Assembly: GCA_047017005.1 (NCBI GenBank)
Contig: JBKXSZ010000001.1
Coordinates: 32,413-96,412 of the forward strand
Origin: Clostridia bacterium
Lineage (GTDB): Bacteria; Bacillota; Clostridia; TANB77; CAG-508
Direction of reading: 5' to 3'
Length of the DNA: 64,000 nucleotides
Made by a program: the position numbers and the translations under genes. Under the pieces are notes generated by a model, which was given only the letters and a program-made list of their open reading frames with translations, did no database searches and was not told where the DNA came from. Of the stretch, positions 14,159-21,324 are shown one piece after another (positions within the stretch are counted from its first letter, which is position 1; every line of letters begins with the position of its first letter).

Positions 14159-17100
14159 CTATTTATTATGCTTTTTGTGTCTATAGATAATAATTCCTAT
14201 GACAGTTCCTATTACTAAAAGAACTATAGCTCCACTCATTATCCAAATCCATGTATTCGTTTTTTGTACTTTTATGGTAATATTACTTTCTGAATTTGTC
14301 TCTTGATTTTGAGCATCATTTCTATTGACTGCTTTTGTTATTTGAGCAGGAGTTAAAATAATTGTATTAATCTTTGTTTCTACAGGGTAAGTGAAGCTTA
14401 CTTCTACTGTCTTTGATTCTCCTGGTTCAAGCTTTTCTGCTGCTAATTGATTTGTTATAATCTCTCCATTTTGCATTCTCCAACTAGTATTTTCTTGTTC
14501 CTCAAAAATAAGTCCTTCTGGAATGGTATCTTTTATCTCGGATGCATAACCAGAGATATCCCCTTTATTTACAACCGTTATTTGGTATTTTACCTTGATC
14601 TGTTTATCTTTTAAATCCTTTTTTGAAATATCTAATACAATATTCTTTTCTTTCTTTTCTCCAGCTTCATATAGAGTTTCTTCTTGTCCATTTTCCTTTA
14701 TAGTAATAGATTGTATTCCTTTTTGTGTACTTAATGCAAAATTCCCAATTCGAACGCTTTCTCGAGAAATATTATCTGCTGCTAATGTATTAACAGTATA
14801 ATCTACATCCTCTACAACTTCCCCTTGCTTATCTTGTGTTTCCGTTATTTCTATTGTTGAATTCGCAATTCTATTAGCATTAGCATTATTTTCTTCTACT
14901 TTTAGTACATATTGAATTTCCTGATAAGAAGGAGTTTTTCTATCTATTGTTTTATTAATTGGCTTATCTGCTAAATAATCCGTTTCTATCGTTTTTCCAT
15001 CTTCTTGTAGCTTCCATCCGTATTTTTTATTTATCTCGTTTTCACTATTCCAAACAAGCCCCTCTGGAATCGTTACTCTTACTATACTTGCAATCCCATC
15101 CATATTTCCCTCATTATATACACGTGCTGTATAGTAAATGGTGTCTTGATTCATTACGGTCATTTCTGATTTATTTTCTTGATATTCCCATGTATTTGTT
15201 TCTGGTAGATATTTTACTTGTGGTATCCTATTGTTTACCTCTAATCCTCCCACTTTTGTAATAAATTGTTTCATTGCTAAATCCATATAAACGACTTTTA
15301 TGTTTTCTGCACTAATATCATCTTCTTCTGCTACTTTGTTATTTGGAATAGAGTCTCTATCCGTAACTTCATTTCCGATTCCATCCGAATCATCTATAAT
15401 TTCTGCTATAGTATAGATATTCGGTTTTGAAATCGCTTCCCTTTTTACCTTTACAACAATCTTTACATCACGATAGTCTGGAGTTTTTTGTAATACACCA
15501 TCAAAAGCTTTGATTTTGGATGTACCACTTGTCTCTTCTTTCTCTTTCGATAAATAATCTGTCTGCCATCTACCATCTTCTGTTTTTTGCCATCCATATA
15601 GCTGGTTAACAGCATCCTCGGTTACTAATTCTAATCCTTCTGGAATTGTTACTGCAATTTTCTTCGCATAGCCTTCCATATCACCTTCATTATAGATTCG
15701 TACCGTATACGTAATTGTCTGTCCTTCTTTTACTTCTAATGGAGTGGTAACCCCTTGATAAGTAAATTCCATTGTATCCAAATTTGTACTAACTTTTGGA
15801 ATTCTGCTTGTTATTTCATTTTCTCCTACTTTACTAACAAAAGTTTTCAATGCTAAATCATATTGTTGCATCCTTACTTTTTCAATATCGATATCATCTT
15901 CACCTAAAACACCATTGTTAGGAGTAGAATCTACATCTTGTACAAGGTTTCCGTCCTTATCTAGATTTTCTCCAATTTCTGCCTGATTAATCAAAATTCT
16001 ATCCGATGCATTTCTCTCTACTACTTTTAAAACCAATTTCACTTCCTTATATGCTGGTTGCGTCATAGTATCTTTATCAAATGCTGGTATTTTTGCATTA
16101 TCCTCTAATAGTGGTTCTGGTTTCGTAAGATAATTGGTAGAAAGGCTTTTTAAATCTTCTGATAAGCTCCAGTTGTATTCTAAGTTTGTATCATTATCAA
16201 TAATGAAGCTTAACCCCTCTGGAATATTAGCTATAAGCTTGCTTGCATATCCATCTATGGTTCCTTCGTTATATACACAAAAAGTATAGGTTATCGTATC
16301 ACCATTCTTTACTGCAATTGGGTCTTTTACACTACTATATATAATTTTTCCTGTGCTTTCATCATAACTCATTTGAGGAAGTCTATTTTCAATACTTTGT
16401 CCATTTATATCGGTAATCGCTGCTTTTAATGACAAATCAAATTTATGAATAGCATTATGAATGGTTTGTTCTTCCATTTTTTCTTCCTTTTGTACAATAG
16501 CAACTGGTTGTTGTTTTGCAAAGGTAGCTCCATTTGTCCAGAAGGTGATAGAAGAAGGATAATAGTTTATTTGTGTTTTTAATTCTACTTGTGTTACTTC
16601 AATTCGATTTGCTGGTATTTCTAAATAAAAAGATACGGTTTCTCCGTTTTGTTTTGTTTGTATATATTTGTCTAGCCCTTCTTTTCCTTCTAATTTTTCT
16701 CCATTTGCTGTAAGAATAGTATAGTCCATAAGCTCTCTATTCTTTTGGTCTGTTACAACTGCTTGTAATGTATATGGTGCATTCGTATTTTTTTTAATTT
16801 CATAAGGTCCTACTATCATATTTCCACTTTCATCTAATGTCATACTAGGAGTTGTTTTTTGCACTGTAACTGGTGCTGGTAATTGCTTTTCTCCCTCTTT
16901 TGCATATAAGCTAGCATCTGTATTAGCTGCATTGATGAAATAATGGTATAACTGGTTCATTTGTGTAAGTCTCATACTTCCTTCTTGCTTTTCTAATTCT
17001 ATTAAGTTCGAATCTAGTCCTGCCATTAGATTTGTTTTTATATCTACTAAGTTGTCGGTATGATAATTACGATCCTCGCTATTGGTATAATACCAGATAG

Positions 17101-17587
17101 CTAATTGTTGTACGACCTCAATATCTTCATCCGTTAGTTGTGAATCTTGTATTCCAGCTATTTTCAAAAGTGCTACTTTTTGTTCTTCTGTCGATTTTAG
17201 TGGAAGATAACTATTATCTAGAATCCATAGAACTTGTGGTAAATTCTCACCTATTTCTAAATAACCTTTTGGTATTGTATCGCTTTTCATATTAAGGGAT
17301 TTATTATAAATGGCAGTTGTTTCTTTAGAATCTAATTGCATGAAGCCTTTTTCTGCTTTTAGGCAATAAATACTTTCATCCCAAGTATGAGATGTTCCAT
17401 CCGCACGGTATTGAATAATTTTAGGAACTTTCTTCCCCCCTATTTGATATCCATATCCTGATTCTCTTAGGAAAACAACTCCTAGTTTTAGAGAATTTTC
17501 AGAAGCAGCATAAGAAATGCTAGATATCGCTAGCATGATAATTACAATGAATATACCACAAATAATTCCTTTCTTATGTGTTCTCAT
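14159..17587 (-). CDS. Large cell-surface protein: signal peptide, N-terminal thioester-domain-like region, at least 4 DUF11-type conserved-repeat domains, C-terminal TM anchor with a basic tail
   Basis: 1142 aa. Signal peptide MRTHKKGIICGIFIVIIMLAISSISYA. The N-terminal domain has IYCLKAEKGF (candidate thioester Cys) and EDIEVVQQLAIWYYTN (TQxA[IV]W-like Gln motif). Repeats carry DUF11-like signatures (GDTITYTFCVYNEGTIDGYASKLIANIPEGLSF) and D.DSTPNN..EDDID spacers. The C-terminal helix WIWIMSGAIVLLVIGTVIGIIIY is followed by RHKKHNK. The RBS is AAGGAAGGAAA. Confidence 0.6.
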   Translation of the reverse strand: MRTHKKGIICGIFIVIIMLAISSISYAASENSLKLGVVFLRESGYGYQIGGKKVPKIIQYRADGTSHTWDESIYCLKAEKGFMQLDSKETTAIYNKSLNMKSDTIPKGYLEIGENLPQVLWILDNSYLPLKSTEEQKVALLKIAGIQDSQLTDEDIEVVQQLAIWYYTNSEDRNYHTDNLVDIKTNLMAGLDSNLIELEKQEGSMRLTQMNQLYHYFINAANTDASLYAKEGEKQLPAPVTVQKTTPSMTLDESGNMIVGPYEIKKNTNAPYTLQAVVTDQKNRELMDYTILTANGEKLEGKEGLDKYIQTKQNGETVSFYLEIPANRIEVTQVELKTQINYYPSSITFWTNGATFAKQQPVAIVQKEEKMEEQTIHNAIHKFDLSLKAAITDINGQSIENRLPQMSYDESTGKIIYSSVKDPIAVKNGDTITYTFCVYNEGTIDGYASKLIANIPEGLSFIIDNDTNLEYNWSLSEDLKSLSTNYLTKPEPLLEDNAKIPAFDKDTMTQPAYKEVKLVLKVVERNASDRILINQAEIGENLDKDGNLVQDVDSTPNNGVLGEDDIDIEKVRMQQYDLALKTFVSKVGENEITSRIPKVSTNLDTMEFTYQGVTTPLEVKEGQTITYTVRIYNEGDMEGYAKKIAVTIPEGLELVTEDAVNQLYGWQKTEDGRWQTDYLSKEKEETSGTSKIKAFDGVLQKTPDYRDVKIVVKVKREAISKPNIYTIAEIIDDSDGIGNEVTDRDSIPNNKVAEEDDISAENIKVVYMDLAMKQFITKVGGLEVNNRIPQVKYLPETNTWEYQENKSEMTVMNQDTIYYTARVYNEGNMDGIASIVRVTIPEGLVWNSENEINKKYGWKLQEDGKTIETDYLADKPINKTIDRKTPSYQEIQYVLKVEENNANANRIANSTIEITETQDKQGEVVEDVDYTVNTLAADNISRESVRIGNFALSTQKGIQSITIKENGQEETLYEAGEKKEKNIVLDISKKDLKDKQIKVKYQITVVNKGDISGYASEIKDTIPEGLIFEEQENTSWRMQNGEIITNQLAAEKLEPGESKTVEVSFTYPVETKINTIILTPAQITKAVNRNDAQNQETNSESNITIKVQKTNTWIWIMSGAIVLLVIGTVIGIIIYRHKKHNK

Positions 17588-20921: not shown

Positions 20922-21324
20922 ATTTTGATACCTTCCTTTATCTTGATATATTTGTTTTTCTATTATACGCATTTTCCTTATCTATATTTTACTATAGTTT
21001 GGGAACAAGTCAATAGCTTATTTTTCCAGGCTTTCTTAGGTTATTTCTATCATCTTTCTTTCCTACTACGGAAGCTACTTTTCTAAGATATACTTTTCCT
21101 AAAATCCCTTATATTACAATTATATAACATTTTTCAATATTTTTCAACTTTTTATGTTAATAATGCGGTGTTTTCCTTTATTTCCCTAGATTTTGTCCTA
21201 TCTTATAACTATTTTTCTCCTCTCCCTTTTATACCAATAAAATCACTATACTATCTATACATTTATTCTTTAACATGTAACATGTCTATATGATAGGGAT
21301 TTTTTAATGCAGTATAATACTAAA

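Follow-up and report, generated by a model that had tools for sequence, protein, structure and literature searches.

Thioester-domain (TED) adhesins are, to our knowledge, the only bacterial proteins that bond covalently to their targets. Among the closest described systems are the Class II TIE proteins (BaTIE of Bacillus anthracis, 6FWV; EfmTIE86 of Enterococcus faecium, 6FWY; SaTIE), which carry a signal peptide, a distal TED, and a stalk of Ig-like cross-link domains. In TEDs, the bond-forming Cys is found in a [YFL]CΦζ motif and the bond-forming Gln in a weak ΦQζΦΦ motif, both on β-strands. Both residues are universally conserved. The Gln belongs to β-strand Q, close to the C-terminus of the domain, and the TQxxΦW motif, found in most TEDs though not in all, is α-helical, its Gln and Trp being dispensable for thioester formation (PMC6194298, PMC4450167). 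The Class II TED has an "extended, highly twisted β-hairpin", and the three solved Class II TEDs show a Cys-to-Gln spacing of 171-204 residues (PMC6194298). TIEpLS20 (p34), encoded by the Bacillus subtilis plasmid pLS20, has no LPXTG motif, is sortase-independent, and is required for pLS20 conjugation (PMC8092201). Here, two tandem TED adhesin genes, designated as pA and pB, were analyzed in a 64,000-nucleotide stretch (the window) of a Clostridia bacterium genome (assembly GCA_047017005.1, contig JBKXSZ010000001.1, positions 32,413 to 96,412).

pA and pB share with the Class II TIE proteins a signal peptide, a stalk of Ig-like cross-link domains, and a distal TED. In this TED, the Cys belongs to a [YFL]CΦζ motif and a β-strand, the TQxxΦW-type motif is helical, and an inserted β-sandwich precedes a long hairpin with a conserved Gln. 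pA and pB differ from the Class II TIE proteins in having no detectable sequence similarity to them, low template-modelling (TM) scores, a Cys-to-Gln spacing of 285 (pA) and 291 (pB) residues, a QQxAΦW motif instead of TQ, a larger sandwich, extra helices, and no LPXTG motif. The stalk is composed of DUF11/CLIPPER repeats (CnaA-like, with Lys/Asp/Asn) in pA and pB, and of CnaB domains in Class II TIE proteins. TIEpLS20 is likewise a Class II-type TED adhesin without LPXTG, but it is plasmid-borne and has no C-terminal transmembrane helix, whereas pA and pB have such a helix, a conserved chromosomal neighbourhood, and another stalk.

It is likely, with a probability of about 0.75, that the two genes are paralogs in tandem and encode fibrillar adhesins of the TIE type, with a Class II-type TED tip bearing a Cys-Gln thioester, a DUF11/CLIPPER stalk, and tail anchors. 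A Sec signal peptide would export both proteins. The tip would be a long Class II-type TED, with an N-lobe carrying the YCLK Cys, an inserted sandwich, and a hairpin running back towards the N-lobe, and Gln360 (pA) or Gln391 (pB) near the hairpin tip would form an internal thioester with Cys75 or Cys100. A target nucleophile, typically a Lys amine, would then attack the thioester, producing a covalent amide link between bacterium and target. The pB tip would stand on three isopeptide-locked CLIPPER domains, and the pA tip on four repeats without isopeptide cross-links. The pB tail, x(T/L)G followed by about 5 residues, a transmembrane helix, and IKKYVL, would keep pB membrane-bound and is possibly a non-canonical cell-wall sorting signal; pA would be anchored in the membrane by a plain transmembrane helix with a longer basic tail.

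Both genes are open reading frames (ORFs) on the minus strand, as the first-pass annotation, made from the sequence alone, had reported. pA encodes 1142 aa. The maximal pB ORF (17919-20972) encodes 1017 aa, and the residue numbers of pB used here refer to it. The ATG at 20921 is the likely start of pB, giving 1000 aa, because a AAGGAAGG ribosome-binding site lies 8-9 nt upstream and because the 1000-aa product is 100% identical to the public protein P0027 (NCBI MFR8103516.1). The start of pA has the same AAGGAAGG site. pA is 99.7% identical to P0041 (NCBI entry MFR8103515.1), and 19 cluster members, from many assemblies, match it at ≥90% identity. Over about 900 aa, pA and pB share 40% identity. 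MFR8103515.1 and MFR8103516.1, which come from a Clostridia metagenome-assembled genome (MAG), are both named 'thioester domain-containing protein' at NCBI; in this respect the window itself adds little new. Their family is large, with 1001 cluster representatives at E ≤ 1e-3, which is far beyond chance; 480 of the representatives reach E ≤ 1e-30. Among GTDB species representatives, it was found in uncultured gut Clostridia MAGs only, with ≤36% identity to pA. TED adhesins are thus abundant in these bacteria, and tandem TED gene pairs are common.

The Pfam TED model (PF08341; gathering cut-off 22 bits) matched residues 73-196 of pA with 35.2 bits and residues 98-256 of pB with 33.8 bits. The AlphaFold2 (AF2) models of pA residues 28-395 (predicted local distance difference test, pLDDT, 82.9; predicted TM-score, pTM, 0.78) and of pB residues 46-612 (pLDDT 89.5) were compared with the PDB using Foldseek. 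For both models, a probability of 1.0 and an E-value of about 1e-9 were obtained only for 6FWY (EfmTIE86) and 6FWV (BaTIE), and the alignments span the whole head. The head comprises an N-lobe with an inserted β-sandwich and then a long β-hairpin. The sandwich and hairpin strands of the models are consistent with the arrangement of Class II, where the sandwich is inserted between the last helix and strand P and an extended P-Q hairpin returns to the N-lobe. The hairpin of pB, with 19 residues per strand, matches the extended twisted hairpin of the BaTIE/EfmTIE86 class. The thioester-domain-like head suggested by the first-pass annotation is thus borne out by the profile search and the structure prediction, whereas its length is about 355-365 aa in the models and not about 250 aa. 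'Cys-Gln thioester bond-forming surface protein' is the NCBI name of a relative. Another reading, in which the head is a Cys-His peptidase or transglutaminase, was rejected, as no His is invariant among 86 heads.

These 86 non-redundant heads, taken from GTDB species representatives, were used to analyze residue conservation. The Cys of the YCLK motif (Cys75 in pA and Cys100 in pB) is invariant (86/86) and located in a β-strand in both models, in agreement with its earlier proposal as the thioester-type Cys. It is the only Cys of pB, and pA has three Cys residues (in the signal peptide, the head, and one repeat). Only two Gln columns are invariant: Gln161 in the VVQQ motif, and Gln360 of pA, which corresponds to Gln391 of pB and is followed by Pro361 in all 86 heads. 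Gln160 is conserved in 82 of the 86. Gln360 is at the start of the β-strand after the sandwich in the pA model, and Gln391 is in the tip loop of the hairpin in the pB model, the better of the two. The surrounding motif, xQPΦΦ, is a loose fit to ΦQζΦΦ, the Gln being followed by the invariant Pro and two hydrophobic residues. In pA, the interval between Gln360 and the Lys column conserved in the first strand of the first stalk domain is 33 residues; the interval in BaTIE, from Gln266 to Lys297, its first stalk Lys, is 31 residues (PMC6194298). Gln360/Gln391 is the likely partner of Cys75/Cys100, as judged by conservation, secondary structure, and topology. This assignment tells experimenters which residue to mutate.

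The other invariant Gln belongs to a motif of a different kind. The motifs quoted in the first-pass annotation are exact (IYCLKAEKGF / IYCLKAEQGF; VVQQLAIWYYTN in pA and VVQQAAIWYFTN in pB). As judged by alignment and models, VVQQxAIW is the TQ motif, and its Gln is predicted not to be the bond-forming one, because the motif is helical in both models (helix 126-141 in the pA model and 135-150 in the pB model) and because VQQLAIWYYT / VQQAAIWYFT aligns to VTQLAIWYFS of the TED-bearing fibronectin-binding protein 5DCQ. Of the 146 family heads with a match to the motif, 135 have Gln where the TQ motif has Thr.

Several observations weigh against the assignment of the heads to thioester-forming Class II-type TEDs. 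The NCBIfam model TQXA_dom (TIGR03934) scored 28.8 bits for pA and 21.4 bits for pB, below its curated cut-off of 30.4. Against the Class II structures, the models reach low global TM-scores of 0.20-0.38, with a root-mean-square deviation of 11-21 Å; for the models, the Class II match is one of topology and local structure, not of tight superposition. Sequence and profile searches of the PDB with pA and family alignments found no Class II TED, and the only profile match was a weak one (E = 0.1) to the TQ motif of 5DCQ. No intermediates towards classical Class II TEDs were present among the best 150 matches listed, which are all close family members. The helical region of pA and pB includes more helices than a three-helix bundle, and the Cys-to-Gln spacing is long throughout the family (202-379 residues, median 298), which is attributable to the extra helices and the larger sandwich seen in the models. 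Coupling between positions of 148 heads (effective number about 101), estimated by a mean-field method as a proxy for Cys-Gln proximity, was weak and non-significant between the strands of the Gln and of the Cys; the ranks of the pairs I73-I364 and L162-V365, 25th and 16th of 64,620, are suggestive. In P0140, a pA-like protein whose head is 42% identical, Gly replaces the thioester Cys (IYGLTAEKG), and the pA-like lineage may be drifting from or losing the covalent thioester chemistry. Since TED diversity of such kind has already been described (PMC9210967), the heads of pA and pB are treated as a long TED variant, not as a new class.

The stalks consist of DUF11-type repeats, as proposed earlier. 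Pfam DUF11 (PF01345) scored 58.6 bits in pA and 58.3 bits in pB against a cut-off of 24.6, and the NCBIfam DUF11 repeat model TIGR01451 scored 53.7 and 54.0 bits against a cut-off of 24. Instead of the 4-5 repeats counted in the first-pass annotation, there are 4 in pA and 3 in pB, of which repeats 1 and 2 of pB are 75% identical. DUF11 was recently renamed CLIPPER, and crystallography shows an intramolecular isopeptide bond formed by Lys, Asp, and Asn (PMC12617251). The repeats of pA and pB are about 190-200 aa long, with two insertions compared with the DUF11/CLIPPER domain of about 100 aa, and the solved domain 9IFR comes from a Gram-negative adhesin, unlike pA and pB. A PDB sequence search with a pB repeat gave no match.

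The triad columns were scored over 1058 repeats from 224 family proteins. The Lys of FDLALRK is conserved in 98%, the Asp of D-x-P-x-G-L in 96%, and the Asn of N-T-A-E-I in 98%. Judging from conservation and residue type, these columns probably correspond to Lys715, Asp748, and Asn806 of 9IFR, whose Lys/Asp/Asn residue types are shared by pB. The Lys of 'HxK', suggested as the isopeptide Lys by the offset in the Pfam alignment, was rejected, as this column is unconserved whereas the LRK Lys reaches 98%. The full K/D/N triad is present in all three repeats of pB and in none of the four repeats of pA. After merging of insertion-split matches, degenerate triads were observed in the family only in pA, P0140, P0145, and P0103. 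The acidic D.DSTPGNN..EDDID linkers, earlier attributed to both proteins as putative calcium-binding segments, are clean in pB only; they are degenerate in pA and absent after its repeat 4. The exact DxDxDG motif occurs in pB repeats 1-2. DxDxDG calcium loops were ruled out as a family feature, the motif being present in only 8% of family repeats.

Both proteins end in a hydrophobic helix and a basic tail (...GGIVLVTVAGGVFLIKKYVL in pB and ...IVLLVIGTVIGIIIYRHKKHNK in pA), and neither tail includes LPXTG, (S/P)PXTG, NPQTN, or a similar motif, which agrees with the first-pass annotation; in sortase substrates such a motif is expected 17-45 residues from the C-terminus, and pB reads TIELG and pA VQKTN. 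The tail of the family can be written as EDDIDDAPV-x-L-[ST]-[IVL]-x-[T>L]-G, followed by 4-7 residues with an aromatic one, a transmembrane helix, and an IKK[FY]V[LI] end. This signal was found in 67 of the 67 full-length homologues from species representatives and in most of the cluster representatives, which are diverse. The Gly is near-invariant, and the residue before it is Thr in 83, Leu in 6, and Ala in 3 of the 92 scored. No Pfam or NCBIfam model of an anchor or sorting signal, including Gram_pos_anchor, matched pA or pB.

About 170 proteins have the tail signal, and their triads are intact in all cases. The signal is absent, with the transmembrane helix kept, in pA, P0140, and P0145; all three have degenerate triads, and they represent at least two separate clades. 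Because signal and triads were lost together, in 2-3 independent events, the sequences hint that the tail acts in concert with the cross-linked stalk, as would be expected of a covalent attachment to the wall. Other heads, too, are followed by this CLIPPER stalk and the xTG–TM–KKFVL tail (TM here being the transmembrane helix). In these stalk relatives (P0183-P0300), the precomputed Pfam domains, with positions as precomputed, include Cna_B, SpaA, PF13399, and others in place of TED. Among the 118 stalk relatives retrieved, 93 have the tail and 0 have LPXTG. Stalk and tail behave as a reusable module, a stalk-and-anchor unit with a conserved C-terminal signal in common.

Membrane anchoring rather than sortase anchoring, as proposed in the first-pass annotation for both proteins, fits pA. 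The tail of pB is instead the one that is strongly conserved in the family, and its three parts are arranged as in a cell-wall sorting signal. It is possible, although doubtful on balance, that [ST][IVL]xTG–TM–KK[FY]V[LI] is a true sortase signal, by which the canonical members, possibly including pB, are linked to peptidoglycan and only pA is purely membrane-anchored. Some 28-30 residues separate the motif from the C-terminus, and a hydrophobic helix and a pair of adjacent basic residues come after it, in keeping with the criteria by which sortase substrates have been defined (PMC4155245). The (S/P)PXTG sortase substrates of C. difficile share with it the TG-ending motif, the hydrophobic helix, the consecutive basic residues, and the distance from the end. 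The predominance of Thr before the near-invariant Gly points in the same direction, as do the members reading PKTG, PQTG, or PATG and the association of signal and triads described above. Sortase genes confirmed by Pfam are found within ±8 kb of a TED gene in 2 of 76 related loci, L028 and L062. On the other hand, no sortase was found in the 64-kb window or, within the same distance, in the other 74 loci. Unlike the C. difficile substrates, most members have no Leu-Pro or Pro at the usual positions; pB has ELG, with Leu at the would-be scissile Thr, and pA has no motif. The sorting-signal models gave no match, a Pro-less NVQTG is not cleaved by C. difficile SrtB in vitro, and the co-loss comprises 2-3 independent events only.

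A wider proposal is considered somewhat unlikely, namely that the family tail, present in hundreds of adhesins from uncultured gut Clostridia and after several different head domains, is an uncharacterised non-LPXTG cell-wall sorting signal that is read by a sortase or some other transpeptidase. If it is true, the tail, the isopeptide-locked stalk, and the thioester head would join peptidoglycan to the target by covalent bonds throughout. In that case, the window would offer a natural contrast, in which pB retains a variant signal together with its stalk cross-links and pA has lost both. As pA and pB differ in stalk cross-link residues and in anchor type, the pair could be used to test joint function.

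The state of pA raises another explanation, which is improbable: the TED fold is kept, but one or both heads, especially that of pA, form no thioester and bind non-covalently. In that case, pA would be a copy that is decaying or has been repurposed. pA is without the family tail and complete stalk triads, P0140, its closest outside relative, has no Cys, and the joint loss of triad and tail recurs in at least two or three lineages. However, pA keeps Cys75, Gln360-Pro361, and all the other invariant residues of the head. It is an intact ORF of 1142 aa that is conserved in many assemblies, preceded by a promoter-like site and a ribosome-binding site of its own.

The neighbourhood of the adhesin genes bears on their function. 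Three neighbours, a 311-aa protein, a CmpB-like protein, and a GGDEF-domain response regulator, are conserved in 16-24 loci including the window. The 311-aa protein is a putative, unproven part of the adhesin system, and the conserved neighbours suggest that cyclic di-GMP signalling may be functionally linked to the adhesin. A transposase gene and a block resembling an integrative and conjugative element (ICE) break into this neighbourhood. Because the neighbourhood is conserved and is interrupted by these elements, the adhesin genes look chromosomal and not part of a mobile element, and the chromosomal context therefore weakens a role in conjugation after the model of TIEpLS20. A tblastn search of plasmids with the head gave nothing meaningful.

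It is accordingly quite improbable that pA and pB mediate contact between bacteria, in a mating pair or aggregate, rather than attachment to a host or dietary surface. This possibility is suggested by the requirement of a sortase-motif-free Class II TED adhesin for pLS20 conjugation (PMC8092201) and by the ICE-like block, with its recombinase, VirB4-like ATPase, TrbC, and CHAP protein, 8-30 kb away. Against it, the TED genes are in a neighbourhood conserved across 16-24 unrelated loci, no conjugation gene is included among the neighbour clusters common to at least 7 loci, and the ICE looks like a separate insertion. Very improbable is the pairing put forward in the first-pass annotation, a thioester between the YCLK Cys and a Gln of VVQQxAIW: it has the conservation of Gln160 and Gln161 in its favour, and the motif is the most recognisable TED signature, where TQXA_dom matches just under threshold, but the motif is helical in both models and aligned with the TQxxΦW motif of 5DCQ, the bond-forming Gln of characterized TEDs lies on β-strand Q and the Gln and Trp of the motif are dispensable (PMC6194298, PMC4450167), and a second invariant Gln is present at exactly the expected late position.

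The coordinates of the genes, their parts, and their neighbours are listed in the table.

Table. Features of pA, pB, and their surroundings; positions are those of the window unless a related locus is named, and pB residues are numbered from the maximal ORF unless stated.
Feature	Position	Strand	Basis or remark
pA, divergent paralog, thioester-domain adhesin	14159..17587	-	ORF; Pfam TED and DUF11; NCBI name
pA promoter-like site, TTGACT-17-TAAAAT	17644..17672	-	Consensus match only; homologous to pB promoter
pA signal peptide, residues 1-27, MRTHKK...SISYA (then AS)	17507..17587	-	Sec type by inspection
pA TED N-lobe, residues 28-235, β-strands and helical bundle	16883..17506	-	Pfam TED; AF2; Foldseek
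pA Cys75 codon (YCLK), predicted thioester Cys	17363..17365	-	86/86; β-strand; [YFL]CΦζ match
pA VVQQLAIWYYTN, QQ variant of helical TQxxΦW motif	17081..17116	-	Helix 126-141; 5DCQ alignment
pA inserted β-sandwich and long β-hairpin, residues 236-380, Class II-type insertion	16448..16882	-	AF2; Foldseek
pA Gln360 codon (QQPVAIV), predicted thioester-forming Gln	16508..16510	-	86/86; start of post-sandwich β-strand
pA DUF11/CLIPPER repeat 1, residues 381-575	15863..16447	-	Triad columns A/A/N
pA repeat 2, residues 576-767 (wider bounds 574-767)	15287..15862	-	Triad columns T/V/T
pA repeat 3, residues 768-949 (wider bounds 766-949)	14741..15286	-	Triad columns Q/V/S
pA repeat 4, short form, residues 950-1105 (wider bounds 948-1111)	14273..14740	-	Triad K/D/T; best Pfam DUF11 stretch 998-1093
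pA transmembrane helix and basic tail (NTWIWIMSG...IIIYRHKKHNK)	14162..14257	-	Family xTG signal absent
Terminator-like hairpin after pA	14123..14150	-	Terminator scan
pB, canonical family member, thioester-domain adhesin	17919..20921	-	ORF; ribosome-binding site; P0027 identity
pB promoter-like site, TTGACT-16-TAAAAT	20986..21013	-	Consensus match only
pB signal peptide, MKLKRK...TTNVFA (then KT)	20835..20921	-	Sec type by inspection
pB TED N-lobe, residues 47-265	20178..20834	-	Pfam TED; AF2; Foldseek
pB Cys100 codon (Cys83 of the 1000-aa protein)	20673..20675	-	Conservation; only Cys of the protein
pB VVQQAAIWYFTN, helical TQxxΦW-type motif	20385..20420	-	Helix 135-150; 5DCQ alignment
pB inserted β-sandwich and two-stranded hairpin, residues 266-411	19740..20177	-	AF2 strands, model 319-337 and 348-366
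pB Gln391 codon (Gln374 of the 1000-aa protein; KEQPLAII), predicted thioester-forming Gln	19800..19802	-	Invariant; hairpin-tip loop
pB CLIPPER repeat 1, residues 412-612	19137..19739	-	Full K/D/N triad (K420, D484, N571)
pB CLIPPER repeat 2, residues 611-811	18540..19136	-	Full K/D/N triad
pB CLIPPER repeat 3, short form, residues 810-984	18021..18539	-	Full K/D/N triad
pB family signal, ELG-GGTNMLY-TM-IKKYVL	17922..18020	-	Leu at consensus Thr position
Hairpin after pB stop codon, possible terminator	17836..17878	-	RNAfold -19.5 kcal/mol; not called by terminator scan
Small unannotated ORF between pA and the 311-aa gene	13682-14095	+	
UPF0236-family transposase gene between pA and the 311-aa gene	12022-13512	-	Interrupts synteny of other genomes
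311-aa protein, N-terminal transmembrane helix and three Ig-like repeats	10901..11836	-	Beside TED gene(s) in 24 loci; weak Ig Pfam matches
CmpB-like membrane protein	9976-10830	-	Conserved neighbour
Response regulator with GGDEF domain	8917-9873	-	Conserved neighbour
ICE-like block	29086-50342		Separates pB from S11 carboxypeptidase
Serine recombinase, ICE-like block	29086-30954		
Two tRNAs, ICE-like block	31528-31702		
S11 carboxypeptidase	34259-35560		Directly upstream of TED gene in 17 related loci
934-aa CHAP-domain protein, ICE-like block	38836-41640		
VirB4/TraG-like ATPase, ICE-like block	45098-47068		
TrbC/VirB2-like protein, ICE-like block	49258-49860		
Sortase gene adjoining TED gene, locus L062	6726-7619	-	Pfam
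Sortase gene ~7 kb from TED gene, locus L028	84-911	+	Pfam

The signal peptides described in the first-pass annotation are apparent on both proteins as Sec-like N-termini. The regions upstream of pA (17588-17800) and pB (20922-21135), both read on the minus strand, are homologous to each other. They have in common the CTATTGACT...TAAAAT promoter boxes, the AAGGAAGG site, and a TCCGTAG element that precedes the -35 box by about 45 nt and could be the binding site of a regulator. At Rfam gathering thresholds, no riboswitch was detected upstream of pA or pB, and only tRNAs were found. Because the upstream regions are homologous and because a hairpin follows pB and a terminator-like site follows pA, the two genes look like separate transcription units derived from a duplication that took in the promoter.

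Among the other genes of the window, a lone tRNA gene (21368-21438, minus strand), with its own terminator-like hairpin at 21339-21363, is located between a GH25 muramidase gene (21949-22680) and the pB promoter. kdpA and kdpB, encoding a potassium-transporting ATPase, are found at 4837-8520 on the minus strand and represent ordinary chromosomal context.

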